From assembly GCA_951406725.2 (NCBI GenBank), contig OX597814.1:26102001-26166000 (forward strand): a DNA stretch of 64,000 bases, in the 5' to 3' direction. This document shows, in pieces, positions 3,712 to 57,815 of the stretch (within the stretch, counting starts at the first letter, position 1; each line of letters begins with the position of its first letter). The position numbers and the translations under genes are program-made. Below the pieces are notes generated by a model that worked only from the letters and a program-made list of their open reading frames with translations, did not search any database and had not been told where the DNA came from. The stretch is from Octopus vulgaris (lineage: Eukaryota).

Positions 3712-4275
3712 TGTCCATTTTCCCCTATTTTTCTCTCTCTTGCCCTCTCACTCGTATTTGTAGCCTTTCTTCTTCTCCTTTTCCCTTTCATATCTTCTGT
3801 TATTTTCTCTTTATTTTCTCTCTGCCACACTCTCCCCCTTTCTCCTCTAACACATGCTAACACATGACCCATGGCCAGCTTTTCTTCATTCTCTTCCTTT
3901 TTCACACCAGCTGCCCAGCTATTCAGTCACAAAAAATTTTTCCTCTTGCTATTTCCATATACTTTAGGATTTCTTTTAACTATTACTCATCATTTTTGTT
4001 GTTTTGGCCCAAAGGCTGTATTTTGCTCGTTTCCTATTTATTTCGTCTTTGTCCATCATCTATCTTAATTATAGTTTTTTTAACTTTTGTATATCCATTC
4101 TGTGATGATTTGTTTGCTTGTGGCTTGACATTCTCTGCAATTTTCGCAGGCACCACCAATATGGGAAGTTCCCAGTCTTATCATTAATGGTGCGAAACTG
4201 AGTATTACCATTTTGGTTGATAACTGATGAAGAATTAGGGATCCTCTGTGTCTGTCTCCCATCTTGTTGTTCTCT
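3712..4275 (+). mobile_element. Pyrimidine-rich non-coding repeat (probable PLE-related) with permuted hammerhead-like core
   Basis: Shares tgctaacacatgacccatggccagcttttctt with the minus strand of 57241-57815 (tgctcacacgtgaccatcgcccatctttctt). GAAA at 4194-4197 and CTGATGA at 4224-4230. Starts next to a TA-rich tract. Confidence 0.45.
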
Positions 4276-4597
4276 CAGTAAAAAGCACCAACTGAATGTG
4301 GTTGATGCCAGTACCCGCTGACTGGCTCTTGTGCTGGTGGCATGTAAAAAGCACCATCCAAACGTGACCGATGCCAGTACCCCTGGCCTGGCCCCTGTGC
4401 TGATGGCATGTAAAATGCACTCACTACACTCTCGGAATGGTTTGCATTAGGAAGTGTATCCAGCTGTAGAAACAATTTCCAGATCAGATTGGAGCCTGGT
4501 GCAGCCTCCTGGCTTCCCAGATCCAGTCAAACCGTCCAACCCATGCTAGCATAGAAAATGGACGTTAAATGATGATGATGATGATGATGATGATGAT
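4276..4597 (+). mobile_element. RTE-type 3' UTR with short tandem units and (GAT)n tail
   Basis: Repeated ctgtgctggtggcatgtaaaaagcacc units, then the shared tail and (GAT)n. Confidence 0.8.
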
Positions 4598-4598
4598 G

Positions 4599-5834
4599 CA
4601 GGGTGCATAAGATATTTGAGGACAGATTTATGTTTATAAAAAAACAGATATATAAAAACAGATACTAACTTTATCAGAAAATGGTATGAGGATAAAAATA
4701 AACCTTCTTTTCTATAATGTTATTCAATAAAACCACCTTCAGTTTCAACAACTACTTCTGTATGAGATTTAAATCATCTACATGCTCAAATCAAGTGGTC
4801 CTGGTTCATTTTGAACATTACTCTGACTATAGCAGATTTCAAAGAATCTTTGGTGTTATGGGCATGTTCATTGACCTCTCTCTCTCAACAACACTCCACT
4901 TGTAATAGTCCAATGGATTGAGACCTAGGGAATTAGGAGGCCAAATGTTAAGGGTTATGTGATCAGGAAAATTTTCAGCCATCCATGCCTGTGTTACTAG
5001 AGCCATGTGGCCTGCCATTTCATACACTGTCTATCCAGGGTTTAACAATTACATTGTCTATCCAGGACCTCGATATAGGCAGTAGAATAAAATCTAAGGC
5101 CTATTGGAAAGAAGTAAGGAGACATCACATGTCCTTCGTTGCTGACAACCCCTAAATCCATGGCAGTTGTAGGAAATTTTGCATGCATAACACTTGGAAC
5201 TTCAGAAGGCTCTGCATATAACCATCTGTCATTTCTTCAGTTAACTTTTTGATCTTGGTCGAAGTTTTTCTCATTTGAGGGAAAACCAAATCAAATCTTC
5301 TGCTGGATTTTTCAGTTTGTTTAAGAGTCTTTTAGATCTGATGTAGTGATTTTCTTTTGCTTTTTCTAACAAATTGACCTTTCCTCATCATATAAGACTT
5401 ATACCTGATGTCTTCGTGGGCATTTCTGACTGTTCCTTTTGACACATGGAGATCTCTTGCAAGTGACCTCATGGACTTTCTTGGATTGTAATCAATGGTC
5501 TATTGAATTTGCTAGATAATTTCAGGTGTTCTGACAATTTCAGAGCATTTAGAATATTTTTTATGCTTTGACACTAGTGACATGTTTCCATCTTCAGTCT
5601 CTAGCTCCTTACAAACTTTGTAGACAAAAGATCTGGCAACTTTTAAAAATCGGGATATTTCTAAATCATTATGCTCAGCCTTTATAACCACAACAACAGT
5701 ATGCCTCTTCATTTCTTGAGTAAGCTGAGGGCAAGCTGCCATTATTATTTTCTAAAACAAAGATTATACAGAATTAGCAAAAAATGCTGCAATGATCCAT
5801 AACAGGTATGTCCCCAAATACCTTATGCACCCTG
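4599..5834 (-). mobile_element. Near full-length DD37D/maT-like Tc1/mariner transposon (decayed)
   Basis: TIRs cagggtgcataagatatttgaggaca (4599) and tgtccccaaataccttatgcaccctg (to 5834), followed by TA. Minus-strand transposase from 5742 (MAACPQLTQEMKRH...) with RKSMRSLARDL, an FSNEKNF-like first catalytic block and WPPNSLGLNPLDY. Contains stops and frameshifts. Confidence 0.88.
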
Positions 5835-5884
5835 TATACACACACACACTTATTTATACATATATATGCACAAGATCATAAAAA

Positions 5885-6530
5885 TATACAGACACATGAG
5901 AAATTGGTTTTCTCAAATGCCCTCAGAGGCTCTCTATAGGTAGTAGATAATTTCTGCTACCTAATTTAGTAGTTGAAGAGGATTTACTGAAAGTGTAATT
6001 TCAAGAATAAGAATAAGATGGAGAGAGTTCAGAGAGCTTTGACCTCTTTTAGCAAAGAAAGGTTTCTCTCTCCAAATGAAAGAAAGATTGTGCGATGCAT
6101 GTGTATGAACAGCAATGCTACATGGTAGTGAAACATGGATCCTGAATGCAGAGGGCATGTGAAGGCTAGAGAGTAATGAAGCTTATATGCTCCACTGGAT
6201 ATGCAATGTCAGTGTACATGTGTGACTTAGTGCTAGTGTATTGAGAGAAAAGTTTGGCATAAGAGGAATTGGATGCAGTCTGTAGACAAAAAGATTGTGC
6301 TGGTTTAGTCATGTGATGCATAGGAATGAGGATAGTTGCATGAAGAAACACCTATCACTTAAAGTGGAAGGAAATTGTGGTAGAGGGAAACCCAAGACAG
6401 TTGGATGAAGTATTGAAGGCCAGTATAAAGATGCTGAGCCTTACAAAGGAGATGACAAAGGACTGAGCTATCAGGTACCTTGCTATACTCAAGAAAACCT
6501 GGTCACCACAGCAAAACTGATATCCTAAAG
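5885..6530 (+). mobile_element. RTE LINE RT C-terminal remnant
   Basis: VVDNFCYL...RIRIRWREFREL...RLCDACV*TAMLHGSETW. Confidence 0.85.
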
Positions 6531-6697
6531 CCACACTGGTAATGCTAGCCCATGAGGGGCTCTGCCCTGTTATCCTTTCTCCCATTTATTTCATCATCTA
6601 ACACCCATCATTCCTCTATCACTTGAGAGCAGAATAGGCACATGCTACATCCCCCAGCTTTCTCAGTTAACTCTCTTTTCCACCCAAAACTACTTCC

Positions 6698-6700
<3 letters not shown>

Positions 6701-6776
<76 letters not shown>

Positions 6777-7001
6777 CACACACATACACACATCTATATA
6801 AACATATCACACAGGCATACACACACACAGACTGTTATATTCACTTTCTATTCATTTTGTGAGGCATCAAAATTTTTGGTGCATCATTTCATCCTGGTCA
6901 TTGACACAGTTCAACATTGTGTTTTTAGAGAGCTAAAATGGCTCTTGCATAAATGAAGTATCTCTCTCTTATCCTCCCTCCCTCCCTCTCTCTCTCTATG
7001 T

Positions 7002-7078
<77 letters not shown>

Positions 7079-7172
7079 TGTATATTTATTATAGATAAAT
7101 AAATACACACAAATATATATTTACATATAGAAATTTATTTGTCTCTATATACCTATAAATCTATTATATATG

Positions 7173-7209
<37 letters not shown>

Positions 7210-7818
7210 ATACACACACACATATGCACACATGTATGCATATATACATACATGCATAAATACTTATATAGATAGACAGATAGATAGATAGATAGATATA
7301 GATATATATGTATATACACACATATGAACACATGCACACGCACATATGTAATGATGTGTGTATATATCTATATATGGAAGTATGTATGTATGTGTGTGTA
7401 TATATATATATATATATACACACACACATACATACATACTTCCATATATAGAAATATATATATATATATATATAGAAAGAAGTTAGTATTTTGACATTTA
7501 AACACCGAGGAGTTGAAATTGCACAGTGACAAAGAAGCCTGCCACTCATTATGACAAGAATTTTTTGTGATCATAAGATTTGAACATCAAGATTCCTATG
7601 ACAGTAGCTGTCAAGTTTGGGATACACTTTAACAAAGGTTTGTTGAAACATGTTGATATTATCAACAAAAGAAAACATCAAGATTACTTTCAGGTCCATG
7701 CCAGTACAATATTCTCAATTCAACAGTTTGTAGCTGTATCAGACACTAAACTTAATGAAGCTTACATACACACTCCTACACATATACAAACAGAAATACA
7801 AACCCACACACACACATA

Positions 7819-7888
<70 letters not shown>

Positions 7889-7989
7889 TATATTTATATA
7901 TGTATGTATATATATATGTGTGTGTACATATATATATATATACATATATATTTATATATATACACACATACATACATATATCCATATAA

Positions 7990-8027
<38 letters not shown>

Positions 8028-8085
8028 ATATATATATATATACATATGTGTGTGTGTGTGTGTATGTGTGTATGTATGTATGTAA

Positions 8086-8116
<31 letters not shown>

Positions 8117-8118
8117 TG

Positions 8119-8152
<34 letters not shown>

Positions 8153-8186
8153 TGTATGTATGTATGTATGTATGTATGTATGTATA
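6701..8186. repeat. Cluster of (TA)n, (TG)n, (GATA)n and (TATG)n microsatellites
   Basis: Directly visible. Source of the YIYIY/CMYV pseudo-ORFs. Confidence 0.95.
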
Positions 8187-8377
8187 CAGAATGAGAGAGA
8201 GAGGTGGGGAGGGGAGAGAAAGCAAGTGAGGGTGACAAAGAAAGTAAAATGTATGAGAGAAAAGAAACAGAAAATTATTTCCAGTTCTAAAACTTTTTAG
8301 ACATACTGTTGAGGTGTGATTATTTCTAGTTACAAACTATACACATAGTGCACATGTGCTCACACATACACACACAG

Positions 8378-8408
<31 letters not shown>

Positions 8409-8498
8409 CAAACATATGTTTTTACATATATTTATAGAACAGACTGCAGCAAAAAGCTAAAACCATTTTTATTTCACTTTTTCATTATTTCCTATATA

Positions 8499-8911
8499 GA
8501 GTAAAGATTGTTTGCCAACATAACATTGCAGTCCTGGTTTAGGACGAATGTTGCTGCAATTTAGCCCCAGGAGACATTGTCTCCAGCTGGCTATATGACA
8601 TGATCTGTGTCCTTATATTTTCAAACTAGGGATTCTAGCGACCCCACTCAGCTCAAAACAATATCTGTGTATCGCGATTTCTGGGTTATTTCACTTTATC
8701 AGCACAGAATAATTGTTCAGCTAGATTCCCTTGTTCAAAAATATAAGGACACAGATCATGTTGTATAGCCAGCTGGAGACGATGTCTCCTGGGGCTAAAT
8801 TACAGCAACATTCGTCCTAAACCAGGACTGCCATGTTTTGTTGGTAAACAATCTTTGCTCCAAAGTACTGTCGCTAAATATCTCTTGGGAGATTTATAAA
8901 TAGTAATTTTC
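8499..8911 (-). mobile_element. 413-bp insertion with ~140-bp inverted arms, 13-bp TSD and a central hammerhead (PLE pLTR/retrozyme-like)
   Basis: Arms 8499-8639 and 8720-8860 are reverse complements with few mismatches. Direct repeat tatttcctatata at 8486-8498 and 8912-8924. Hammerhead in the spacer. Confidence 0.85.
8664..8708 (-). ncRNA. Minimal type I hammerhead ribozyme motif (G8A variant)
   Basis: Minus strand reads tctgtg CTGATAA agtgaaataaccca GAAA tcgcga TA cacaga: 6-bp stem I, palindromic stem III tcgcga, AUA site. Confidence 0.8.
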
Positions 8912-8934
8912 TATTTCCTATATATTTTTTATGT

Positions 8935-9280
8935 TTTTGCTTTTGCTTGTTTCAGTCATTAGACTGCAGCCATCCTGGAGCACTGCCTTTCTTTTTTAGA
9001 ATTTTTAGTCAAATGAATCAACCCTAGTACTTATTTTTTTAAAGCATAGTACTAATTCAATGATTCTCTTTTGCTGGTCTGCTAAGTTACAGGGATGTAA
9101 ACACACCAACACCAGCTGTCACAAAGATACGCACACACTCACACACGCAAAGACACACACACACACTAGAAGACTTTGGTCAGCCTGAGGCTATAGTAGA
9201 AGACACTTGCCCAAGGTATCATGCTGTACCATGTGGTTGGGAAGCAAGCTTCTTACTTCATAGCCCTGCCTGTGCCTATA
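8935..9280 (-). mobile_element. tRNA-derived composite SINE (reverse orientation)
   Basis: Reverse complement of the copies at 22190-22605 and 50813-51155 (ttgtttcagtcatt...gctatagtagaagacacttgcccaagg). Confidence 0.8.
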
Positions 9281-9339
9281 CATAGCGTTCTTTCATAAGC
9301 TTACTGCTGATTTACTACTATATATATAACAGTCACATA

Positions 9340-10570
9340 AAATGGAGGGAACTTGTGGAAAAGGAAGACTTGGGAAGATTTGGAGTGAAATAGTGAAGTC
9401 TGATCTCAAGATGTTGAACCTCACAAAATAGATGTTAGAGGACTAAGGTGATTGGTAATTCACTGTGCTCAAGAAGTCACAATCCATCACAGAAAAAATG
9501 AGATCCTAAAACATTTTGTGTACACAAGTACATGTTAGGCTTTGCCCTTACACCCATCTGCCTTATTAAGCACTCCCCTTGAGAGCAAAACTGATGCATA
9601 TTTTATCCCCTACTTTTTATGCTACTACTTGCATCTCTCTCTCTCTCCCTGCAACCACTTCTTTTTACTATACATCCTTCATATTCATTATCATCTTTTC
9701 TCACTGTATTTTTACCAATCACCCCCTTTCTATATCTTCAGTTATCTTTCCCTCCAACAGCATCTTAGGCCCGCCAAACGTAATCTTTAGCACTTCTCAT
9801 ATCTTCTATAATTTTCAATACCCTTCAACATCTGCCATCAATGTTCTAGTCACCTTTGTTATCCACTCATTATAGGCACCCTTATGTACCTCTGATCTCC
9901 ATCTCTGTCACTGTACATCTCTCTTTCACTACTTTTACACTTGCGCACCATCTCTCTACAGTCTCATCTATCTTCCTTCCTGAGCCACTTCTATCTTTCT
10001 CGTTTTACCTACCTCCAAACTGATATTTATCATTAGCTACACCTTCACTCTTACTTATTACTCACTATATTCACCTCCACCCCTGTCTTTAATTATCTGT
10101 TGCTCTCCTCCAGCACTCTTATGAAATAGCCTACACTCTCTTTCTACTTCTCTCAATCCATATTCTCTCCTATATTTTACTCATCTTGTACCCTGAGAAT
10201 TTACTCTGGCACCATCTTTATCTTCTTCCTGGCTACTTCCACCCACCCTTATATATACTGTAGGATAGCCATGTAGCTCCTCTATAGCAAGACACTTGTG
10301 CTTGTCCTCACATTTTAGCCTCTTAACACCTAGCAGAAAGCTATCACCGCATCTCAAATATCCATCTTACTTAGTTGAGGGGTCCTTTTATCTTCTTCTT
10401 GTCAACTTGGGAACCTCACTAATGCCAGTGGCATGAAAAGGAAGCAGAACATCCAGCCATACAAACCATTGACATTGGAGTTTGATGGTGTCCTGTAGCT
10501 CAATGGATCCTGCTAAACCATCCAACCCATTCCAGCATGGAAAACAGATGTTAAACAATGATGATGATGT
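9340..10570 (+). mobile_element. RTE LINE 3' end with long C/T-rich 3' UTR and (GAT)n tail
   Basis: ORF-end remnant (EGTCGKGRLGKIWSEIVKSDL), then ~800 bp of pyrimidine-rich sequence, then ccatccaacccattccagcatggaaaacagatgttaaacaatgatgatg. Confidence 0.6.
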
Positions 10571-13250: not shown

Positions 13251-15440
13251 AGACCTAATACGTAAGATATTTTAAAATGAAGTAGTATTTAGAAAGCTAG
13301 AAAATGTGAAGTTTTTCATCAAAATACATCGAAAGTAGGAAACTAAATGACATTTTCTTGCATTTTTGGTTTTTTGTTGTCTTTTTCTGTTTGTTTTTTG
13401 TTTGAAAGCTTGCCAAATTCAATCAGATCAAAACAAAGATTAGAGATCAATTTTGTCTTATTTTCCTGGAATTACTAGGCAACATGGAAGCAGAAAATGA
13501 AGCAAAAGATTTGTAATACCAAATTGAATGAGATTTATATGGATGAGAACTAACAAATGATTTCTACAAACATATCCTGCATTTTAAAAAACAAGGAAAC
13601 AAAATGAACGAGTAGGAAAATGCTTGCAACAGAAACCAAAACAAAGAGAAAATCCTTGAAATTTTCAAAAACGATACAAAATATAAAAGGATATTCTTTT
13701 GTATTGGAAGAGATTTCCACAAAGAAACAGCTTCTGCTGTTTTAGAGTGAGAGGAATTTATTCTATCTTTATAAATTATTTTTAGAAGGGAACACCAGTT
13801 TACCCTGGTATGATAATTGAATGTGGTGTGCATGCTTCTATTTTGGTTATTTACTGATTTTCTTGTTTTCTCTCCTTCATGATTTTTTTTTTTTTTTGCT
13901 TTTGTAAATTATGCCCTTGGCAATTATCTACATTTTAGATAAACAAATTTATATATTATCATCCTTATCACTACCATCATCATCATCATTTAAACCTCCA
14001 CTTTTCCCTGTTTGCATGGGTCAGGCAGAGTTTAATGAAGCAGATTTTCTATGGCCAGATACCCTTCTTGTTGCCAACCCTTGCCTATTTCCAAACAAGT
14101 TTATATTTTCTCGATACCTGACATATTTTTGCAGAATACTGAAAATGAATGGTACTATTTGTATGACAGTGACACTCATTTACAACTATTATGAGATGTC
14201 AAGACAAGGAGACACATACATAGACACTAACACATACATATGTACATATATGGCAGGTCTCTTTCAGTTTCCATCTATCAAAGGCACTAGTAGATCCAGC
14301 ACACAAATAGAAGACACTTGCTCAAGGTGCCACACAGTAGGACTAAACTGAAAACCATCTGGTTGGTAAGCAAACTTCTTAACCACACAGACATACCAGC
14401 CCCTTTAAAAAAATATATCTTTTTCAAATTTAGTCATGCTTAACACAAATTTTGAGCAACACTTATATTTATGAAATACTATCATGGAGTTTAGTTTTAG
14501 AAAGATAGATTAAGAAATGTGAATTTACATTTGCTCTCAATACTAATAATTTTCATTTTGCAATGGTTCATTTAAAAGCTTTCCAAAATTACCTAAAACA
14601 ACTGAAGTAAAAAAATTAGAATAACAAAGAATTGCAATTCAGTAACACATTGTAGCAATGCTTCAGGTGATGCTATTGGTAAATAATTTTAGGGAAGGAG
14701 GTATTTATTCATTTCTTTCTTGAGCATCAAGCAATTTCTCTATCTTTCCCAAAGTTTTGGTTGATGCTGTTCCAGAAACTGGAGTTTGTGGAATTTTTTC
14801 CGCTTTAGTTGGTCTTTATTATTTTTGTTTCATTTTCCTTCTGTCCTTTTTGATTTATGAATTTGTTTTGTCTTTATTATTTTTAGGCTTTGCTTTTTCA
14901 GTGTAGGGGTTGATGGGGAGGTTGCCTTGTCTTTCTGGCTCATCAGGACAAGAGGCTTTGAGGTAACTCTTACTATAAAAAATGCAACATCTACGCATAT
15001 TCCTCTGCCCTTTGACTTAATACCGTAAACTGGGCACAGTTAGGGATTGTGTGTTTTTAAATATATGAGTGTGTTTATATGTGTGTGTGTATGCACATGT
15101 GTGGGGATCATCATTAAGCATACATTTTTTCCATGCTTGCAAGGGTCAGGTGGAATTTGCTGAGGCAAATTTTCCTAGGACCAGATGCCCTTCCTGCTTC
15201 AACCCCTCACCTGTTTCCAAGGAATATAATACTTATCATAACCAAACATGCTTTACAAGGAAGACTGAAAACAAAACATCACTTGTATGATAAGGATGCT
15301 TGTTTACAACCATCACATGATATAAAGACAAAGGTTTACACACAGATGCACACACATATAGATATACATATACATATATAATGTATGTATGTATGTATGT
15401 ATGTATGTATGTATGTATGTATGTATGTATGTATCTCTCC

Positions 15441-25600: not shown

Positions 25601-26772
25601 AATATATATATACGTGCATGTGTGTATGTATGTATGTATGTATGTATGTATGTATGTATGTATGTACAACTGAGTACTCTTAGCACATTGCTTGCTCTTA
25701 GAATGTAGTCCTCACATTCAGCTGTAGGTATATTCTGCAAGGAAAAATTAAAATGCTTTCAGCTTAGATAGGTTGCCATCATTCTCCTTCTCTCTGATGT
25801 GAAGGTCATCATATTTAGTCATATTCCTCTATCTTCTCCTTATTATTATTCCCATTGTCATCATCACAATCATTACTGCCACCAACAGTACCTCACTAAC
25901 TTCCAGTGAACATTGGTTTTTTTTCTTCTTTTTATTATTATAATCAGTTACACAAACAGCTGGCACTATATTATTGTTTTCCTTGTTATTTCTGTGGTGT
26001 TGATTTTGTGTTGTTATTTTCCTTATTCTGTGCCTCTCTTCTATTCAACGTTATTCCTTTCAAATTCGTATTAAATATTGCTTCTCAGTAATTTGATTGA
26101 GATCAAAGTGTATTTATCTGCTCTTATAAGCTTAATATCTAATAAGGATTCTATTAAAGACCACAGATATTAAACAGATATGCAGAACAAAATGATGAGT
26201 TATAGGTTAGCAGTATTACAATTTTTTCAGGATTCAGACTATCTTTCATGTGGCTGTTGTTATTTAGCTCTGATACAATCCTGATTGAACAGACTTTATA
26301 TTCAAGGGCATTCCAGCCATGACTATCTCATATTTTTCCTATGTAATAAAAACCCAGGGCTACATTATTCAACAGGTCTTTTCAAGGACACTAAGTTGTT
26401 ATTTAAATGAGATTCGGTTATTATTCCTAAAAGAGTGAATGACAACATTTAGGCTACTTCATTGGTTTCTCTCACATGGAAATGTAATAGCTTGATTACA
26501 GCCTAAAACCGAAATCAGTACCAGAGCAAAACAATAAACAATTTGATGTTTACAGATATATTTTTAGATACTTTCTATTTCACCATTTTAAAATTTCATT
26601 TATTTTCTTAAATGTTCTTTTTTGTAACATGTCAGTCAGGTTTTACCAAAATACACACACACCAGCAAAATATTAAAAAATGCAACCTATGAACAATTAT
26701 GTTATGTATGCTACTTCCTCTACATCATTACTAGACTGAATTTATTTGTATTTTATTATTTACAAAACACAA

Positions 26773-28219: not shown

Positions 28220-28842
28220 ACTCGATACATAAGAAATGAACTTACACATATCTGGAATAAATGTAGCAAGACAGAAGACCAAATCATACACACTGCATAC
28301 TTCATAGATGTACTGAAGATGAATGGATACCCAACATCCACAATGAATCAACTGAAGAATCGAAGGTGCTGCAGGCATAGGACCTCTGCTAACATCTGCT
28401 TTATAAAATAACCATAGCTATCCGTAGGGCTATCCACAAAGAAGGACTGGACATACAGTTAGTACACTTCAGCTCTTTTCTGCATGGATACCTATCTAAA
28501 AAGCAATCCAGAAACAACAATCAATGCTCACTGACTAATTGCCTTATCCATGATACAGGTATGTGCCAGCGGATACATGTAGTATACTAGATTGAATGCA
28601 ACAAATGTAAGAAGTTCTACATTGGTAGCAAAACTTGAACACGCCACACTTACATTAAAGAACACCTCAACACATGCGCATCCTCATTCAAAAGACTCAT
28701 TGACAAATTTAGAAACATTGACCAACATATCATTATCATTAAAGCCAATGATAGAAATATGGGGAACTTAAGAATTAAGGAAACCTTGCTCATACATAGA
28801 CTCAGCCCACAAATAAATAATAGATTAGAACTCAGCACATAA
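28220..28842 (+). pseudogene. Penelope-like element: RT thumb, Cys-rich linker and GIY-YIG endonuclease remnant
   Basis: LKMNGYP...CSLTNCLIHDTGMCQRIHVVY*IECNKCKKFYIGSKT*TRHTYIKEHLN...LRIKETLLIHRLSPQINNRLEL*. Confidence 0.88.
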
Positions 28843-29063
28843 TACTTGACAGAAAGGACACACCCACAGGCACACAAACTAAACATCTCATACAAAAGAA
28901 AAAAATGATTTCACAAAATACTATATTAGCAATTGACATCATTCACATGGAAAGCAAAATAACCATCAAAAATGCTTGAAAACGACCTAAGAAAAAATTT
29001 TAATCAAAATGTTATCCCAAAGAGGGAAAAATAAAACATTATCCAATGAAAGTTCCTTAAACC

Positions 29064-29098
29064 CTGATGAAGGGACTGTTAGGTCTTAAAATATTGGA
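29064..29098 (+). ncRNA. Degenerate hammerhead core in the PLE 3' repeat
   Basis: CTGATGA agggac tgttag gtctt AAAA. GAAA is mutated and stems I/III are not evident. Lies ~220 bp after the PLE stop codon. Confidence 0.45.
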
Positions 29099-29299
29099 CA
29101 GATAAAAGTACAACAGCAACAACAATAAGAAAAAACAAAACAAAGATTACCAGGTAATTTACTTTTAATTTCTATTACCTCATCTTGCTGTCCATTTTGC
29201 ATTGTTTAGCTTTCTATCTCTTTAAACGTTATTATTTGCATTATTTTTATGCCAAGGTATGCTGTGAATATTGAAACCTTCCTAACTGATGGCATTTAG

Positions 29300-36129: not shown

Positions 36130-37624
36130 GTCTCATTGATTACTACAGTTATGAATGAATAAATTTATTGAGTTATATCCATGTGTATTCACTCTAGCCC
36201 ACGAAATTTAGCTCATGTGAATCCTAATTTGTAGAACACATATACTCCAATACGTAAGAAGGAAACATTGAAAAATCACTCCTACATTTCCTTTGTCTAT
36301 TGAATTAATACATGAAAAGTGCATTGTTAGTACTACTCAAACAACCAGCCTAGTCTAAGGGCTGTAACTATCATAAATTTCTGCTCACTCAATCAGATGA
36401 AATTTTAGATAAAAGTTGATGATAAATTAATATTTTATTTTTATTTTTTAATAAATTACTTTGATATATATAATATTTTGTAAATTAATACAAGGCAATT
36501 AATTAATACAAATTAATTTTCACATGTATATGAACAACACACACATATACACACACATTGTATGTGTGTGTATGTGTGTGAACATATACGTTTGCATATA
36601 CTAATTTCAAATATTAACATTTTTTGAAGTGGAAGAGATAATTTTGCATAAGGCAAATCAAAACAAAACAAAAAACTATGTTCAAACCCTTAATGAGCTT
36701 ATGGGTAATGACAAGAAAATTGATGATTATCATAAATATCAGCTGGCAACCAGCCAAAGATAAAAGATGAGCTAACAGTTCACCTTTTATCTTTTATATA
36801 ATAAATCTTAACAAGATTTGTTTTTTTCCTTTAAATATCTCACAATTTTCAAAGAAACAATGAAATGCTTCATATAAAATGATGAACTTATTGAAATGTG
36901 CATTTTCATAAACCAGCTAAATGTGGTAAAAAGAAATAATTGCTGAAGCTGTTGAGAGAATTGATTAAGAGGGATTTGAAGTTAAAGTATACAGAGTACA
37001 GCCATAGATAAAAATATTCAAAGTGATTAACAAGCATATTTTACATTTCTACATTAAATTTTGCAAATGTTCTCTGCAGGATACTGGTCAATCATCATCA
37101 TCATCATTCAACATCTGCTTTCTGTGCTGGCATGATTTAGATAGTTTGACTGGAACTGGTAAGTCAGAGAGCTGTACTAGGTTCCAGTCTGATTTGACTT
37201 GGTTTCTACAGCTGGATGCGCTTCCTAATGCAAACTACACCAAGAGTATTGTGGATGCCTCTCATGTGTCACTGGCACGTGTACCTTTTATGTGTCACCA
37301 GCACAGGTGCCTTTTATGTGTCACAAGCAGGGGTGCCTTTCATGTGTCACTTGCACCAGTGCCTTTTACTGAGAACAGTTGTGAAAATTTATTTTATGAT
37401 TACAGTATAAAAAATTTTTACTCATGCTTACATGTTTATTAATTCAGAACTTCTCCCACTTTCAATGGTGTGCATGATGGTGAGTACAAGACTTTCAGGA
37501 TGGGGTGCCAGTCCTTTGCAGACTCAAACTCCCATCTGTTGCTGGTACTTATTTTCAGCAGTGTGGACTGGAGCAATGTGAGTCTTGCTCAATGATACAA
37601 TTTGCTGCCTATATCAGGAATCAA

Positions 37625-38605
37625 ACCTGCTGCCTTGCAAAAGGAATGTGCTTTCATCTGGGTAACATGCACATTGTGAACTGGGGTGCTATCTTGGAGG
37701 AGGTGGACTCCTTTGGTCAGCATGCCATGCCTCTCTGCTTTGACGGCATCCCACAATTTCTGCAACAGAGAAGCATAATATGCCCCGTTAATTGTGGCAC
37801 CCAGAAAATCCATCATCACTCCTCCGTGCTGGTCCCAAAAGACTGTGAGCATCATCATGCCTGCTGAGAGTTGGACACAAGCCTTCTTTTGGAGGTGGTG
37901 AGTTATCATGCTTCCATTGCTTCGACTTGATCTTTGTCTGGGATCATATTGGTGGACTCATGTTTCATGCGGTGTGATAAGTTTGCTGAAAAAGTCCTCA
38001 TTTTCTTGGCACATTGTCAAAAGAGCCAGGGAGTAATTGACTCATTCCAGCTTCAGAAAAGGTGTGGGCATCTGGGGAATCCATCGTGCAGACAACTTCT
38101 GCACGTGCAACTGTTTGTGAATTATTTTTTCCTTGGACCTTACACTTATCTTCACTTATTAGGCTAGTTGCTATATAGTTATGTGGTGATCCTCCAAAAT
38201 GGTAGCTCCTACTTTATGGATGGTGTCCTCATCAATTGCAGAATGTGGTCATCCAGGAATAGAAGCAGTTTTAACCAATGTCTGACCACATTTGAACTGG
38301 TGATATCTGCTCTTGACTACATCATATGATGGTTCATCGTCACCATAACCTTCTTTCATCTCACTGAGAGTCTCTTTTAGTAATTGACCTTTATAGTATA
38401 AGAATCTGATCACTAATCTGCATTCAACTACCTCCATTATAACACCTTAGTTCACTTCAGCAGTTGTAAAAGACAAACTAATACTAGTAGAAAGCTGCAA
38501 TTTACAATGTGACGTGTAGAGACATGTATGATTATACTTGTACAAGTTCCATTTCCTGCAATAATCAAAAGTGAGTCAGAGGAAATCTTTAATGAACACT
38601 CCTTG
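37625..38605 (-). mobile_element. Mariner-family transposon, 3'-truncated
   Basis: TIR (ta)caaggagtgttcattaaag at 38605. MEVVECRLVIRFLYYKG...; SAGMMMLTVFWDQHGG...TINGAYYASLLQKL...LLQDSTPVH. Confidence 0.88.
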
Positions 38606-47355: not shown

Positions 47356-48077
47356 CCTCCACCACCATACATCTCCCCTACTCTCTCTACACTCATATGT
47401 TTCTTTCCTTGTATACTGTCATTATTATTGGTACTATTCTGCTACACTTCCTCCTTCTATTTACCCCCTTTTCTACATGGTCAGTCAACTCCTCTCCCCT
47501 ACTCCCACTTACGTAAGAGATTTGAGGTAAATTTTTGTTGCCTACTCTTCCCTACTTTCTGTATTTATCATCTCTCAACACCTGTTACTTATAATATTTA
47601 CTCTTTCACCCATTGTTCATCTCATCTCTAACCCTCTCTCAGTTCCCACTCATTTCTACTTATCTCATATCTTGATGGTCCAGTCTCACACCTCATCACC
47701 ACCATTTGTATCTTCTTTCAGTTCCACTACAACCACACACACCATGTCTTCTATATTGTGAAGATCTCTACAGCAAGAAGCCTATTCTATCCTGATCCCT
47801 TTTCTCTTACTTTAACCCCTCATTCCACAACATAAAGCTTCCTCCCACTCAGAGGAAGCTTTATGCTACAATCCCAATTGGTCATAGAGATCATAGACAT
47901 ATGAATAGACAGGAGAATAAAGTTCATGCGTAATAAAGTTCATACATAATAATGATGGGCTGTGAACTTTATTCTCCTGCCTGTATTATTCTATCTACTC
48001 TTTTACTCTTTATTATTCTATCTGCTATTTTATTCTTTTATAATTCCCTGTCTAGAACTTTCATACATAGACACCTT

Positions 48078-48153
48078 GTCTCTGATGATGAAATACCCAG
48101 TGTATGGAGATGCTAACCTATCACTTGAGATATCCCAGAAACAGCTGTAAAGC
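48078..48153 (+). ncRNA. Minimal type I hammerhead motif in a PLE-like terminal repeat fragment (~47963-48260)
   Basis: gtct CTGATGA tgaaatacccagtg...cacttgagatatccca GAAA cagctg TA aagc: intact core, palindromic stem III, GUA site, degenerate stems I and II. Confidence 0.75.
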
Positions 48154-48322
48154 ATCCAATAATTAATTAATTAATTAATTAACTAATTGATTAATCAATT
48201 ACCTAAAATTCACCTTACTCTAATTAAATATTCTAAATGACTCGAGATACTCATCTTGCCTTGGTTTTTCTTGTTCTTTTTCCTCTAATATATATACATG
48301 TATATATATATATGTATGTATG

Positions 48323-50462: not shown

Positions 50463-50812
50463 TTTAAAAATAGAGAAAAATGGCAACAAGAAAAAACAAC
50501 AACACAAGTATGTGGTACATGCAAAGTATTAATAAGACACTCAGAGAAGAAAAGAAAGAGTGGTTGTTTTATGTATCAAAGCAAAGTTCTTCTTCAGAAA
50601 CAAGAGATGCATGAAAGTCCAAAAGAAAAGGAAGAAGGTGGGAAAAAATTGCTAACTGTCCATGTGTAGTTACATTTTCGAATGGCCGGAAGTAGATGGA
50701 CAAAGAGAAAGTGCTTTCTGGGACTGGAGAGTGTGAAGAATGGTTGGTATCTGTGTGTATGTGTGATATACATACATATTTATATTCATATATATATATA
50801 TATATATATATA

Positions 50813-51155: not shown

Positions 51156-51177
51156 ACATTTATATATATATATATAC

Positions 51178-51965
51178 CATCATTTTCATTATTTAGTGTC
51201 CATTTTCCATGCTGGCATGGGTAAGATGGTCTGACTGAGGCTGGTAAACCAGAGAGCTGCACCAGGTTCTAGTCTGTTTGGGCTTGGTTTCGACTGCTGG
51301 ATGTCCGTCCTCACATCAACTACTCCACAGTGAAATGGGTGTTTATTTTCATGTCACTGGCACAGATGCTTCTTACATGGTATGGGTGCTTCTGTCACTG
51401 GCACATGTCTTTTATGTGTCACTGGCAATTTCACTTAGCTTGACAAGCACAGCAAATCACCAAAAGTCTCAATCACTTGTCATCACTGCCATGAGACTCA
51501 ACATCTAAAGTTCATATTTCACCACCTCGTCCCACATCTTCCCGAGTCTACTTCTTCCTCAGGTTCACTCCACAGTTAGAGATCGGCACTTCTTTACGCA
51601 ACTGTCCTTGTCTATATGCATCACATGACCATACCATTACAGTCTTCTCCCTTGCACACTACATCTGATGCTTCTTGTACACAATTTTTCACTTACACTC
51701 TACCATATGCGCACACTGACATTGCCCATCCAGTGGAGCATACTAGCTTCATTACTTTCAAGCCTTTCCATGTCCTCTGCAGTCACAGCCCATGTTTCAC
51801 TGTCATGTAGCATAGCTGTTCGCACACGGCCATCATACAATCTGACTTTCACTCTGACAAAGAGGTTCTTTGTTACCAACAGTTGCAGAAGCTCTCTGAA
51901 CTTTGCTCAGCTCATTCTTATTCAAGAAGCTACATGCTCAGATCATCCTCCTCCACAGCTAATTT
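51178..51965 (-). mobile_element. 5'-truncated RTE LINE
   Basis: Reverse complement of the 16.4-17.6 kb copy (RIRMS*AKFRELL, TAMLHDSETW), ending in the tail at ~51180. Confidence 0.88.
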
Positions 51966-51974
51966 TGGGTGTAT

Positions 51975-52030
<56 letters not shown>

Positions 52031-52032
<2 letters not shown>

Positions 52033-52275
52033 CAGCGTACGTACACTTTGTTCTCTTATATCTGAATGTAATAGCTGAATGATGGCAGTACAGCCAGAAG
52101 TTGATAGCCCTAATCCTCTTGTTTATATTTGCTTTTGTATTGAGATTTTGCCCCTCCATATTTTAAAGAGGTCTTAGGCCATCAGGTCTTGGAGTCTGAT
52201 GATACGCCATAAAGTTAAACCCTTTATGGACGGGAAACTCAGGGTAAGCCCATAAACCAGCCTTCACCAGAAAAA
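52031..52275 (+). mobile_element. ~245-bp non-coding element with two tandem hammerhead motifs, between (TA)n tracts
   Basis: Motif 1 (52075-52110): CTGAATGA tggc agtaca gcca GAAG ttga TA gccc. Motif 2 (52196-52250): CTGATGA tacg ccataaag ttaaacc ctttatgg acgg GAAA ctcaggg TA agcc. Confidence 0.7.
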
Positions 52276-52525
52276 AAAAATTATATATATATATACATGA
52301 TAAAATAGCCCTGATTCTGTTGTATAGTGTAGATACAGCAATATATTTACATACACAAAAAGGCACCCAGCCTTTCACCTATAAGTGACATTGTGTTATT
52401 TTGACTGCTTGTAACTTCAGTACAACGATGACACACTTGTATGCTACATTATCCTCACCACATATTCACCACTTTAGTTGACTGTAAAACTGCATTGACG
52501 GAACATCTCTAACCATTTCTTCCAG

Positions 52526-53087
52526 ATGGCACACTCAATAGCAAAAAGAGTGGGAGATTGTGGAAGCATATGTGAGAATGGGTTCTGTTAAGCAAATGCA
52601 CAAAACTTTTGAAATCAAGTTTTTCGGTAAGGCTTTACTTGCAAAGAGAATGATACAAATGTTGGTTAAGAAATGGCACTCTATGGGGTCAGTGCACAAC
52701 ACTCCATAACAAAGAAATCCTACAGTTTGAAAGCTGGAAGTTATTGAGAATATTTGCCAAACGTTTACTCAGAAGTACAAAGAAATCAGGATATAAATTG
52801 GCACAGTAATCTCTCAGAAGTATGAGGTCATGCCAACAGGAGTTGAAAAGTCTGAAGTTGAAGCCATATCATTTCAAGTAAAAATGGATGACAAGAACAA
52901 ACAAGTACATTACTACCCATGGCTTTTGAATTGCAGTTGCAAACAATCAATAGAACACATTTGCAAATGAAATGGTGAGTTTTTTTCATGTGCATAAATT
53001 TATTTCTGTGTTTATAATATGTTATGGAACCTAGGTTTTTCATACACTACCACGTATACATATGTATGTATATATGTGTGTGTATAT

Positions 53088-53140
<53 letters not shown>

Positions 53141-53165
53141 GGATGACCATTTTTTGGACAACCCT
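52526..53165 (+). mobile_element. Tc1/mariner-superfamily remnant (DUF4817-like N-terminal HTH)
   Basis: MAHSIAKRV..IVEAYVRMGSVKQMHKTFEIKF...RMIQMLVKKWHSMGSVHN. TIR-like end gaccattttttggacaaccct at 53145-53165. Confidence 0.6.
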
Positions 53166-53498
53166 TATGCTAGAAGTAGATCCACTATGGTCTTACCACT
53201 AACAAATGTTCTCAAGAAAAATTTAGCAAACACTAGAATGTAAGTGAGCAAGACAAACGAAAAGTAACAAAATACAGATTATTCCCATACATGTTTCACT
53301 ATTAACAGATAACGTAATTTTACTTACACAATTGACCGGAGAACTTCAGTGTGACCGTCCATACAAATATAATTTGTAGAACTATATACGGGGACGTCTG
53401 CATGAGTCAGATCTGTATATAGTTCTACCTATTACATTTGCGTAACTGTGATAACTAAGTTACATAATTCATGACATCATAACACATAAATATATGCG

Positions 53499-53559
<61 letters not shown>

Positions 53560-53569
53560 ATATATAGTT

Positions 53570-53800
53570 TTTTATTCTTTATCCTTTTACTTGTTTCAGT
53601 CATTTGACTGTGGCCATGCTGGAGCACTGCTGTAAAGGATTTTAGTTGAAGAAATCGCCCCTGGGTCTTATTTTTTGTCAGCCTAGTATTTATTCTATTA
53701 GCAACTTTTGCCAAACCACAAAGTTACAGGGACATAAACATACCAACATCAGTTGTGAAGCAATGGTAGGAACACACACCAACACAGGATACACTCACAT
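53570..53800 (-). mobile_element. SINE 3' domain
   Basis: cttttacttgtttcagtcatttgactgtggccatgctggagcac...gttacagggacataaac. Confidence 0.8.
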
Positions 53801-54042
53801 AAACACACACACACATGTGTATATATATAAGAAATAATGGTGTCATTGTCATTGAGACCCAAAGGTGTCAGGTAATGCTGAATAAATGCTATAGACAGAC
53901 CATAGTTAAGTTCCAGATTTGGTAATATTACGAATAAAGGGTTCAACGTTGGTTCTATGTCAGCGTGTGTATATAAGAATTTTTTGCATAATAAGATAAA
54001 AAACCAAGGCTGTATAGATATTAGAGCATTTATAGATAGAAG

Positions 54043-54094
54043 GTCTTACAGCTATTTCTAGGATATTAATTAATAATATCCCTTCATCGGAGAC
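54043..54094 (-). ncRNA. Minimal type I hammerhead ribozyme motif (U4C variant)
   Basis: Minus strand reads gtct CCGATGA a gggatatt attaatt aatatcct a GAAA tagctg TA agac. Stem I gtct/agac, 8-bp stem II. Same family as the 48078 motif. Confidence 0.85.
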
Positions 54095-55181
54095 GGTGTG
54101 AGAGGAAAAATTAAGTCATAGTTAGTTTCGATGTGATACAAAATAGAGAGTGAGGTGGAGGAAAGAAAATAGATGTAAGATATGTATGGGTATTGAATTT
54201 GTAAATCCACTTTATAGGAATAATGGTATATATGCAATATTCCAATATCCTTTGAGTAAAATCCAAAAGTCCAACAGAGTTTAATATGAGTCCTTCCAAA
54301 TATAGAGTATATAAGCAATGTAAGATTCCATTATGAGTGAGATCCAGCAGATTTTTAAACTTGGTCATTCCCAGTAGGGAATTTATATACAGTGTTGTAG
54401 AGTCAAGGTTTATATTTAAAATGACCTAGAAATAGGGAGTGTATTAGTATGGTTACATTGAAAACAGGAAGAGAGAAATGAAATAAAGAGAAAAAAAGCG
54501 AAAAAGAGGAGAGAACAAAAGAATAAAAGAGAAAGGAGAGAGAAGATTAGTAAAAATAACAAAATGATAAAAAAAATTAAAAAATAAAGAATAAAAATCC
54601 TGAAGATATGAATAAAGGGAATAAAGAAAAACGAAAAAAGAAAAATTAAGGTATAGATCAGTCAGTGGTCAGTGGAGATAATTTGAAAGTAGAAGTGGGG
54701 ATAGAGAGAGAAAGGTATTATAGTGTAAAAGATAGAGGAATGGGGAGGTTTAAGAGATAGAGGAAAGACCAATGTATAGTAGTATCTTCTAATTGTGAGG
54801 CAAAGATATGAAGAATTAAGGAAATAGCAGTTCAGTGTTTAGTAGTCTGAGAAAATATATATGTGAAGATGCATATACATGTATACATCAGATAAGTTAC
54901 ATATACAATCCTTATTCGCATGCGTATGCTCTCATACACGTTCGCTTATACACTCATCTGCGTGTATCATTGCCCCTGCATATGCAGGTATATATACCTT
55001 GCAAGTGTACATATGTTTACATATACCCACATGCATGCATATATGCATACCCTCACTCGTACTTATATACACATGCATGGGTGTGTGCTCGTACATATGA
55101 ATATAATCAGATGGTTGTATATGTGAGAAACTAGACAGGGATTATGAGTTAGAGTGTAAATTTATAGTTTAATGGGATTAC

Positions 55182-55592
55182 CTAAAAATTATTGCGGAAA
55201 TGTACTGTATGGTCATTCTGGCATTTGAATTTGTGGTAGAATTTAAATGTGTGGTAACAGCGGTGGTTGCATGTGCTTAGTGCCTCGTTATGCTTATTAA
55301 GCAGTGTTGGAGAGTTGTGCTTTAATATTTGAAGTGCCTCCTTCAGGCAAAGCTTGCAGATTGAGCGTTGACCTTGGCAGGGAAGTCCTGAGTCCAGTAT
55401 GGACCATGATAGGGTATAGGGTATATTTGCATTTTTGAGATGATGTATGTGGTTGGTGAATGTTGTAGATTTACTATGTTTATCGTATCTAAAAGAGTGG
55501 AGATGAGTGGCATATCATTGCTTAAAATGCTTTGTTGATTCTATGTATATGGCTGTAGCATTGTGTAATAGGTTAAGGACCGTGCATTTGTA
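55182..55592 (-). pseudogene. PLE GIY-YIG endonuclease domain (one in-frame stop)
   Basis: YKCTVLNLLHNATAIYIESTKHFKQ*YATHLHSFRYDKHSKSTTFTNHIHHLKNANIPYTLSWSILD...CKLCLKEALQILKHNSPTLLNKHNEALSTCNHR. Confidence 0.88.
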
Positions 55593-56006
55593 GGGCATAC
55601 GCATGTGAATAAGGATTGTATATGTAACTTATCTGATATATACATGTATATACATCTTCATATATATTTTCTCAGACTACCAAACACTGAACTACTATTT
55701 CCTTAATTCTTCATATCTTTGCCTCACAATTAGAAGCTACTACTACACATTGGTCTTTCCTCTACCTTTTAAACCGCCCCCCATTCCTCTATCTTTTACA
55801 CTATAATACCTTTCTCTCTCCAGCATGACCACAGTCAAATGACTGAAACAAGTAAAAGGATAAAAGAATAAAAAACTATATATGCACACACACACACACA
55901 CACACATACACACATATATTTATGTGTGTGTGTGTATGTGTGTGCATGTGTGTGTGTGATGAATATGTCATGATGTTATGAATTATGTAACTTAGTTATC
56001 ACAGTT
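55592..56006 (+). repeat. Composite inverted duplication (of 54704-54932 and 53444-53624)
   Basis: 55592-55820 is the reverse complement of 54704-54932, and 55818-56006 is the reverse complement of 53444-53624 (microsatellite part differs in length). ctc is shared at the junction. Confidence 0.9.
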
Positions 56007-57075
56007 TAAAAATACCTATATTTTATGCAAATGGTAGATAACAGGGTACATATCACGTATGCATCTTCTACCAAAGCTTCATGAATTAAAATGATTAGAT
56101 GATATTAAACTCTTCCATTTGAATATCTCTTTCTCAGCTACTGATGTACAAGAAAGAATGTGCTTACATTCTTATTTCACTCACAGTGGGGTTTTGTAAT
56201 ATTTAGCTTTATTGCATTTCATCTGATTTAAGATGGGCTGAGTATGAAGTAAATATTATTTAATTAATGACAAGCTGGTAAAATTGCAAGTATGCAAATT
56301 AGCCAATCCATTAGAGTACTTTTCTAATTTAAAAATGCTGACCTTTAATTCTGACCTTGATGGGAGTCTAGGTACATTTCTTCTGAGAGCAACAACACAT
56401 TCTCCATTTCTTTTTAATACTAAATATATGAGTATGTATGTGTGTGCTTATGTTTCATATTTAAAACTCAAAAGTTCTCAGACACTGTTGCAAGGAAGTG
56501 TAAAGACTACAGTGTTATCTTTAAGTGTGCTAAAGCATATGTGTGTGTATATATATATATATACATGGAACAAAAATCTATATATTAGTGTATATGTAAA
56601 GACACACGTATAAATGTGTTTGTGTATATATACATATATAGAGAATATTTTGTTCTATAAATTTAACAAATTTTTTTTTGTATATGTGTGGCATATCCTC
56701 CGTTTATAGTGATGAATATCACCAAGAATCTTAATTGCTATAACAATTTCATCTCTTGGCATTCAACCAGAAAGTGAAGGATTTCAATAATATCTTTCTG
56801 CCAAGTCTTTGAACAAGGCACCGATTCCCTATGAATATTTTCAAGCTCTACTTGTTAACAGATCAAATCCAGGAAAAAAAGATTTGAAAGCCAAAAAGAA
56901 AAAAAGAGAAAAAGAAAATCAAAAACAGAAAGTAAGCAAAATTATCATATATTGATAATTTCTAAGAATTGTTGCAAATTCTAAAATCTAATTTCTTTCC
57001 AAATAATGTCCATCTTATAACAGTTTATATATATGTGTGTGTGGGGTGTGTATATATATACATATATATATATAT

Positions 57076-57113
57076 ACTTACTTGGAAACGGATGTGTAGT
57101 GTTCAATTAAATG

Positions 57114-57152
<39 letters not shown>

Positions 57153-57194
57153 TTACTTGGAAATGGATGTGTAGTGTTCAATTAAATGACAATA
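57076..57194 (+). repeat. 44-bp direct duplication separated by (TA)n
   Basis: acttacttggaaa(c/t)ggatgtgtagtgttcaattaaatgacaata at 57076 and 57151. Confidence 0.9.
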
Positions 57195-57240
57195 AAAAAT
57201 GATATACCTATATATATATATGTATATGCATATATGTGTA

Positions 57241-57815
57241 CAGGACATCACCAACTGTAAACAGCATGAAGTATGAAAACAAACAAGTTGAATATGCAAA
57301 CAACAAGAGAAAATAGAAAACAGGACAAGTAACACAAAGAACGACTCATCATCAGTTGTCAGCTGTCTATCTAATCCTCCTTTCAAGCATTCAACGACAA
57401 TATGACTTCCAAAATAAAACTTTGGATTTATGGAGGGTCAAAGTTGGGAACGAAAACAGGACAGTGGAGACATGCAAGGAAACCAAACAAAAACAAACAA
57501 GGAAGATTGTTAGACCAGAACAACGGGAAAGTAGTGAACACAGGTAGAAATATTTTCTTTGAAAAGATAGAAGAGAGAAATGGAAGACGTCCAGTCCTTA
57601 GAACATCCATGCAGGAAAAAAAAGCTGATCACATGAGGAAAAGAAAGATGGGCGATGGTCACGTGTGAGCAATGAAAAACAGAAAAAGAGAAAGAATGGA
57701 GAGAGATACACAGGTAGAAAATGGTGAAGGAGAGAAAAATGGATTTCTCTCCTTGTTTGCGTATCCAAGTTGTTTGTTTTCGCACTTCATGTCGTTTATA
57801 GTTGGTGACGTCCTG
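57241..57815 (-). mobile_element. 575-bp non-coding element with ~75-bp inverted termini (inverted PLE repeat or MITE)
   Basis: Left caggacatcaccaactgtaaacagcatgaagtatgaaaacaaacaag versus reverse complement of the right end caggacgtcaccaactataaacgacatgaagtgcgaaaacaaacaac. TA at both ends, TA-rich flanks. Confidence 0.8.

Follow-up and report, generated by a model that had tools for sequence, protein, structure and literature searches.

The 64,000-nucleotide stretch of the Octopus vulgaris genome considered here (C1:26102001-26166000, referred to as the window) contains decayed copies of seven families of Penelope-like elements (PLEs), and we estimate a probability of roughly 70% that two of these families carry a hammerhead ribozyme with a split core that is likely to cut itself and likely to have come from Naiads, a clade of PLEs. 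The genome, 2.8 Gb in size, is rich in AT and in microsatellites. A sequence-only reading of the window had flagged nine hammerhead-like cores, and all nine core strings were present at their coordinates. Two of these sites (4194 and 57339) have GAAA before CUGAUGA and are not type I cores. We lettered the families after their flagged sites: A (54043), B (8664), C (4194), D (52196), E (48078), F (57339), and G (29064). Core positions follow the standard hammerhead numbering (C3-A9, G10.1, C11.1, G12, U16.1, H17), and statements about published papers and their supplements refer to the passages covered.

The consensuses of families C and F run, from 5' to 3', through a stem II strand, the cleavage site, GAAA, and CUGAUGA. 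The block holding the cleavage site lies upstream of GAAA; its left side pairs with the bases after GAA to give stem III, and its right side pairs with the bases preceding CUGAUGA to give stem I. Stem II joins the strand before GAAA to a strand further upstream that begins with G, not to the bases after A9. A fourth helix (I-II) connects the strand following stem II with the strand preceding stem I, and the bases after A9 often pair upstream (helix X), adjoining a hairpin (Y) that ends at G10.1.

In the window, family C is represented by an element on the forward strand (3712..4280), which other copies identify as a truncated copy of a head-to-tail unit of about 750 nt that has no open reading frame (ORF). 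Junctions from the 3' to the 5' end of this unit were found at four loci (L087, L089, L090, and L091), with a spacing of 771 nt in L089. The 5' strand of stem II starts from G10.1 (4150..4155) and pairs with 4188-4193 at six of six positions. It is followed by the cleavage-site or S block (4171..4183), consisting of a stem III strand, a predicted GUC cut after 4177, and a stem I strand; by the G block (4188..4202), with the stem II 3' strand, GAAA, and the other stem III strand; and by the C block (4218..4235), in which a stem I strand and CUGAUGA (to 4230) lead into the 3' strand of helix X rather than into stem II. This copy has one mismatch in distal stem III. A descriptor match places the likely 5' strand of helix X (5 bp) at 4130-4134 and the likely hairpin Y (4 bp) at 4135-4149, directly 5' of G10.1, both with moderate statistical support. 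The family F element, an ORF-less unit of about 600-750 nt, lies on the reverse strand (57230..57746) with an inverted piece at 57744-57871. Family alignment locates a decayed split-core hammerhead at 57349..57439 (-), with the helix X 5' strand at 57434-57439, the S block at 57395-57407, a predicted cut between 57401 and 57400, the G block at 57377-57389, and the C block at 57349-57361. The window copy has lost 26 nt, including a strand of stem II.

Genome-wide, a pattern that ignores pairing and asks for GAAA before CUGAYGA gave 3,791 matches against 55 for the reversed control, a 69-fold excess, and revealed another split family, H, with 2,188 exact 30-mer matches. The descriptor of the split order matched the window only at 4150-4230; across 630 kb of fetched loci it matched 19 places, and in 10 shuffles of the same 630 kb it matched none. 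It accepted 14 of the first 30 pattern loci, the other 16 being decayed or truncated, and it picked up in the flanks an unlooked-for split family, K. Among 119 sampled metagenome loci, seven passed the descriptor with new stem sequences. Family H is young. One of its loci (L474, G000:C1:79499421-79502343) holds a five-unit array with 720-726-nt spacing, in which the units are 99% identical and every one has a full split hammerhead. The ORF-less tandem units measure 771 nt in C, 605-752 nt in F, and 720-807 nt in H.

Several observations accompany these families. Units of C, F, and H (L075, L160, and L220; in the window at 57657-57667 (-) and 3860) share a CT-rich tract with a CACGTGACC-like motif after it, which is possibly a promoter element or a sign of common origin. 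More split families appear in the flanks of L077, L087, L119, L132, L203, and L121, where K mostly has a CUGAAGA core and L121 is GC-rich. Short metagenome contigs (L332, L315, L361, L376, and L411) carry split hammerheads with new stems, and L332 has all six helices together with a TA-centred palindrome downstream.

The pairing was evaluated independently on 43 pattern loci (the first 30 matches and 13 chosen for variety), which had been found by a pattern blind to pairing; the null was obtained by swapping strands between families. Stem I was 90.7% paired (null 45.6%) and stem III 82.8% (null 50.7%), with several pair types per position, so that the covariation check proposed in the sequence-only reading, run on the split-core loci, showed both stems pairing above the null with compensatory changes. 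U16.1 was present in 38 of the 43 loci, and the NUH triplet was ATA, ATC, or GTC in 34. A perfect stem II was present upstream at 25 of 43 loci (null 25%) and after A9 at one; when four of five pairs suffice, there is little contrast, with 34 upstream (null 65%) and 18 after A9. Variants of stem II include GCACC/GGTGC, GAGCA/TGCTC, GGCTG/CAGCC, and GAAGG/CCTTC, and the families examined retain the G10.1-C11.1 pair. A second set of 11 examples from this genome and from metagenomes had 94.2% of cells paired (slid controls at most 45%), two-sided changes in 10 of 11 pairs, and a covariation of 0.952 against 0.262; this set was chosen after passing the descriptor, and the 43-locus test is therefore the independent one. 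Two MAFFT alignments that misregistered stem II and family K were not counted, and a further alignment left out K, the Naiad type, and stem II. The I-II helix has 5-9 bp in matches of F, H, K, and C2 and 12 bp in L332, scored without a null, and 2-5 bp as scored in several decayed copies of C and of the Naiad type. Helix X reaches 13 bp in family H, with compensatory changes.

We observed directly the block order, stems I to III, the I-II helix, and the ORF-less tandem units, and we regard the split fold, which covaries and is pseudoknotted, as very probably real. It is very improbable that small inversions and AT-rich symmetry in decayed repeats produced it as a by-product. Type I core counts in the window are near chance, the family C region can also fold as a single long hairpin, and PLEs do generate inversions; the absence of descriptor matches in shuffles, the 69-fold excess over the control pattern, the compensatory changes in crossing helices, and an identical layout in unrelated sequences from other phyla all speak against such an origin. 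The pattern excess and the 43-locus pairing test have largely refuted it already.

Whether the fold cuts is a separate matter. Comparison of sequences predicts that the split hammerhead is self-cleaving, and we hold this to be probable. The fold would correspond to a type CSG hammerhead cut between A9 and G10.1 with its halves swapped: opening CSG at that point and exchanging the halves yields exactly the order observed. The RNA would leave the core after A9 through helix X and re-enter at G10.1 through hairpin Y, with the core folding normally and X and Y closing the gap. The opening would fall where an extra base is already tolerated in PLE hammerheads; an extra unpaired base has been described at this A9/G10.1 position (PMC4209133), engineered minizymes in which a linker from A9 replaces helix II keep some activity (PMC544870), and other non-circular hammerhead permutations cleave (PMC10085705). 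One cut per unit might then turn tandem transcripts into monomers of 700-800 nt, whose cut pieces would stay paired via stems II, III, and X, an arrangement that could favour re-ligation to circles. A Naiad-type reverse transcriptase (RT)-endonuclease would copy the RNA into TA-rich DNA, giving partial tandems and 5' inversions. Monomers, circles, and copying into TA-rich DNA are proposed by analogy with retrozymes and PLEs. Contigs of presumed-RNA runs span most of the H unit and its head-to-tail joint; since this joint is also present in DNA, the contigs are no evidence for circles or expression.

Because all stems form inside one unit, a dimer would not be needed. A motif that cuts solely when dimeric or between tandem units, or else as type II with a second block between GAAA and CUGAUGA, seems to us improbable. 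Minimal hammerheads of PLEs are believed to work as dimers (PMC4209133), the elements are arranged in tandems, and in family C the linker from GAAA to CUGAUGA contains a second block that resembles the S block. Yet the first stem I pair of this inner block is broken in 6 of 25 family C copies, which form one subfamily; F, H, K, and the Naiad form do not have the block; the non-palindromic stem III offers 5-6 bp inside one unit; and a stem II in the type II position was perfect at one of the 43 loci. The assignment of family C to type II via the inner block was rejected on the broken pair and the stem II count. We also rejected an intron that spans tandem units from A9 to G10.1, as AG precedes G10.1 in family C alone.

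The Naiad origin of a self-cutting split hammerhead draws on published Naiad records as well as on this genome. Naiads were reported without a canonical hammerhead, and 10 "core" and 8 "half core" cases were marked among them (PMC8557442). We read the supplement of that paper by eye and with motif searches, in which line breaks hide matches, and named records without a displayed header by file order. Among the matches listed, at least 11 of the 54 Naiad records have the split form: three from Acropora, one within the Clytia part of the file, two within the Morbakka part, one within the crustacean part, two from Octopus, the one preceding Naiad_Adux (by table order, Euprymna), and one within the ctenophore part, whose stem I is short. 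The record in the Euprymna position has a short TTAAA-type linker, as do C, F, and H. By the same reading, nematode Naiads have plain type CSG with the I-II helix in 8 of 8 records. Matches to CTGAAGA added no further clear case among the 30 listed of 43. Naiad 3' ends from spiders, Limulus, crustaceans, and hemichordates contain several CUGANGA or GAAA boxes with other pairings, which may be other layouts.

One repeat family of the octopus genome matches the published Octopus Naiad consensuses, and its motif has 399 matches in this genome against none for the control. Of 39 RT-anchored stretches, 9 have the Naiad-type motif downstream of Naiad-type RT frames. The clearest are L466 and L483, and in L483 about 850 nt separate the motif from a 292-aa frame; the split fold sits downstream of a Naiad-type RT in this genome. 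The C, F, and H units have no ORF, and an RT of this type was found upstream of the Naiad-type motif only. Over the RT probes, open frames reached at most 246 aa in one search (108 matches) and 300 aa in another (88 matches). Among the best candidates scored in the 39 stretches there was no intact Naiad and no coding partner of C, F, H, or K, and tracing the Naiad ORF upstream in L277-L280 led to an unrelated fragment of the long-terminal-repeat type. No alignable sequence beyond the fold was common to family C and the sampled Naiad lineage. Families C, F, and H do have (TA)n targets, partial tandems, and 5' inversions, features common to other PLE clades and not specific to Naiads. Because the fold and the insertion pattern are common to both, we infer that Naiads may have mobilised C, F, and H, which we consider reasonably likely by analogy. 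The odds are slightly better than even, in our judgement, for a broader reading in which Naiads of ctenophores, cnidarians, nematodes, crustaceans, and cephalopods have an active CSG form in nematodes and a seventh topology, opened at A9/G10.1, elsewhere, and in which these ribozymes drive young, ORF-less, monomer-cutting, and circularising retrozymes at thousands of copies.

A number of points weigh against a self-cutting split hammerhead of Naiad origin. Most copies are decayed, with intact core boxes in 11 of 25 copies of C and 6 of 20 of F. Helices X and Y are weaker than the others: X has at least 6 bp in 16 of 25 copies against a null of 70%, a loose test in which the null was not beaten, and a position-constrained test gave 13 of 32 against 30%. 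When a family H copy is folded with a nested model, which cannot form pseudoknots, X has a probability near 1 and stems I to III have 0.1-0.2. Eckert et al. assume that CUGAnGA is inseparable from its stem II strand (PMC10085705). Motifs of the C, F, H, and K types lay downstream in none of the 39 RT-anchored stretches (best candidates only), the search of these stretches found no intact mobilising element, and family H is young while the Naiads in the genome are dead. The spider, bivalve, hemichordate, and fish Naiad 3' ends lie outside the resolved set. In vitro, moreover, one PLE could insert without hammerhead cleavage (PMC11167929).

This last result bears on the possibility that the fold is real and does not cut RNA, being kept as a binding or priming structure for a retroelement protein. 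We consider this unlikely. It would fit with A9 not being joined to G10.1, with Anolis PLE hammerhead mutants that still inserted in vitro and the absence of observed RNA ends at the hammerhead site of that element (PMC11167929), and with the cleavage of only one of nine Xenopus retrozyme dimers (bioRxiv 10.64898/2026.07.22.740005). It fits poorly with the retention of all catalytic positions and of NUH (34 of 43 loci) across wholly different stems in several phyla, and with the G10.1-C11.1 pair kept in the families examined. Self-cutting is the reading that we prefer for the split hammerhead.

The remaining flagged sites concern the ordinary layout. Each site was used as a genome query with 40 candidates scored per search, and 8 of the 9 fell in multi-copy repeats belonging to the seven families. 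First-look candidates numbered 3966 for 54043, 2915 for 8664, 1097 for 4194, 1815 for 52196, 1302 for 48078, 4508 for 57339, and 62 for 29064. As family consensuses show, A, B, D, E, and G are type I minimal PLE hammerheads, so that the cores at 8664, 29064, 48078, 52196, and 54043 stand as type I and those at 14921 and 52075 fail. The site at 14921-14952 (-) is unique, its single genome candidate having neither a stem III nor a UH site; 52075-52110 (+) is a non-canonical relic, as the family D consensus has no canonical core there. Core frequency was to be compared with shuffled controls, and the window alone is barely above chance: a type I descriptor found 2 sites with a perfect core (mean 0.5 in 20 shuffles) and 19 with one mismatch allowed (12.7 in shuffles). 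Support comes from the genome-wide families, whose consensuses bear out several families of PLE-type ribozyme repeats. Hammerheads were absent among the best 150 of 273 matches listed in an Rfam scan of the window, RF00163 gave 6 genome matches among 73 candidates scored, with none inside the window, and the 96 matches of Rfam models to seven loci included no ribozyme. L002, L003, and L006 carry type I hammerheads in which stem II is very long (Rfam matches of 108 nt); L002 contains an inverted pair, and these hammerheads represent another PLE-like family.

The five type I consensuses place CUGANGA ahead of GAAA and GAAA ahead of UH, and they have a short stem I, a stem II, and a mismatch or extra base after A9. 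Stem III is palindromic in A, B, E, and G and near-palindromic in D; of the stem III sequences proposed from the window alone, "ctcaggg" is a mutated copy of a near-palindrome and "ctgag" forms a 6-bp stem together with a partner strand upstream. Core boxes are intact in 25 of 30 copies of A (C at position 4 allowed), 19 of 30 of B, 12 of 25 of D, 10 of 25 of E, and 1 of 15 of G, where the pattern spacing does not suit the family and the type I assignment rests on family alignment. The proposed proximity to TA tracts held up for many copies, counted as (TA)4 within 330 nt downstream and compared with control windows: A 16/20 (control 4), C 11/17 (6), D 12/14 (5), E 9/17 (5), F 11/12 (1), and G 0/6 (2).

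GIY-YIG remnants had been noted upstream of two cores, and we confirmed them for 29064 and 54043, that is, for families G and A; family B has no ORF. Pfam searches of eight window ORFs did not match GIY-YIG and matched one DDE transposase. Family A (53820..55820, -) is the 3' end of a PLE with a C-terminal endonuclease, supported by its genome family and consensus, with a GIY-YIG remnant at 55182-55514 (-), an inverted segment at 55592-55820, and a type I hammerhead at 54043-54094 (-). The core reads CCGAUGA in most copies, with U4 in 3 of 30, and C4 stands as a fixed change to the core of a PLE hammerhead that is well formed in other respects. A cysteine cluster precedes the GIY-YIG frame upstream of the hammerhead (Pfam GIY-YIG match E 0.0027, below the cut-off), and we read the family as Neptune-like, a label taken from descriptions in the covered passages of PMC8557442 and not from a tree. 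Family G (28560..29231, +) is the 3' end of a coding PLE, with a broken GIY-YIG frame at 28561-28840 and, by family alignment, a minimal type I hammerhead with a 2-bp stem I at 29062-29098 (+). The family D repeat (52071..52299, +) has its hammerhead at 52191-52254 and includes the relic at 52075-52110. The family E repeat (47954..48280, +, with an approximate 3' end), placed by its genome family, has a hammerhead with a long stem II and a palindromic stem III at 48077-48154 (+). Inversions occur in 11 of 25 copies of D and 8 of 25 of E.

The sequence-only reading took the hosts for non-autonomous elements with inverted repeats. The first point is right for B, C, and F, which are ORF-less head-to-tail units, and wrong for A and G, which are 5'-truncated ends of coding PLEs; the inverted repeats exist and are the known PLE 5' inversion with a one-sided tail, not a distinct element type. 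Family B in the window (8499..8860, -) is one unit of an ORF-less tandem retrozyme of about 350 nt with a 5' inverted arm, and its type I hammerhead (8665-8707, -) is mutated at G8 and in stem II. The unit measures 347-353 nt, and its motif has 557 exact genome matches against none for the control. The inverted arm was present in 18 of 20 copies chosen by the core motif alone, and an extension of about 57 nt on one end only in 20 of 30 copies chosen by the palindrome. We rejected a miniature inverted-repeat transposable element on account of the ragged ends, the one-sided extension, and the head-to-tail continuation of the unit. The family, including the window copy at 8499-8860, forms hundreds of near-perfect palindromes of about 400 bp in the genome. 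If transcribed, such palindromes give long double-stranded RNA, a possible substrate for A-to-I editing in cephalopods. The inversion and tail match those described for PLEs (PMC8557442, PMC11167929).

Two features of the window stand apart from the hammerhead families. A U2 small nuclear RNA-like match at 26077-26192 (+) exceeds the gathering score (53 bits), is AT-drifted, and is probably a pseudogene. A Mariner-type DDE transposase fragment lies at 37589-37957 (-) (PF01359, E 1.8e-11).

No small ribozyme has been studied more than the hammerhead, which in nature has been taken to occur in six orders of three blocks that cannot be divided. A natural form whose core strand is separated from stem II would violate this rule and offer a new opening point for structural work and engineering. 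If correct, the split reading would reverse the conclusion that Naiads lack hammerheads, an absence that had been an argument for ribozymes as possibly dispensable passengers of PLEs. It would also move non-circular permutations from unassigned metatranscriptome and metagenome contigs to animal genomes, at high copy and alongside a host element, and it would make CSG and the split form relatives inside a single clade. Since standard Rfam and RNAMotif scans miss split forms, counts of invertebrate ribozymes and retrozymes are likely too low.

Among known hammerheads, type I variants with a reduced stem III have reportedly been described by Luense et al. in 2017. The minimal type I hammerheads of PLEs (PMC4209133) resemble A, B, D, E, and G in their short stem I, palindromic or near-palindromic stem III, and extra base after A9; family A differs by C4, and C and F are not type I. 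The type I portion of the system outlined by the sequence-only reading is already described in the passages covered (PMC4209133, PMC7229834, bioRxiv 10.64898/2026.07.22.740005), and that system is largely known; the two split-core families had been missed. Non-LTR retrozymes are likewise ORF-less head-to-tail units with one hammerhead each (PMC7229834, bioRxiv 10.64898/2026.07.22.740005). Family B, with its type I core and 347-353-nt unit, fits them directly, whereas they are defined by type I and C, F, and H have the split form in units of 600-800 nt (PMC7229834). The groups that Li et al. (2026) name as sampled include no mollusc (bioRxiv 10.64898/2026.07.22.740005).

No description of the split layout was found in the literature searched, which took in few subscription papers and left figure supplements outside, nor is it described in the covered passages of PMC13725137, PMC10162972, and PMC13159263. 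The pseudoknot (pistol-like) hammerhead of Zhan et al. (2024) is also pseudoknotted with a standard core, but it keeps A9 joined to G10.1 and CUGAnGA before GAAA, and its pseudoknot involves loop II (PMC11300833). Eckert et al. (2023) assumed six orders of three indivisible blocks, validated SGC and CSG, and reported no permuted form in known organisms' genomes other than one GCS candidate (PMC10085705). Their type SGC (HRIMA-1) shares with the split form the order of cleavage site, GAAA, and CUGAnGA, a short linker from stem I to stem II, and a helix between the strand after stem II and the strand before stem I; the split form has the S, G, C order with covarying stems I and III. In SGC, however, the stem II strand follows CUGAnGA, whereas in the split form it is upstream of the cleavage block (PMC10085705). 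We did not file the split form under SGC because the stem II criterion fails (1 of 43 there, 25 of 43 upstream). Relative to type CSG, of which Eckert et al. gave two examples, the split form is a circular permutation at A9/G10.1; it ends in CUGAUGA unjoined to G10.1, a gap that helices X and Y likely close (PMC10085705). CSG order with an intact C block was not seen in the window families. Naiads have the split fold at consensus 3' ends together with (TA)n targets, partial tandems, and 5' inversions, and differ from the ORF-less C, F, H, and K in having an ORF with an N-terminal GIY-YIG and a C-terminal RT (PMC8557442). Judged by sequence against the published passages, the split layout is outside the six published permutations, and the split core is a variant of a known ribozyme, well supported by covariation and tied to a PLE clade reported as hammerhead-free.

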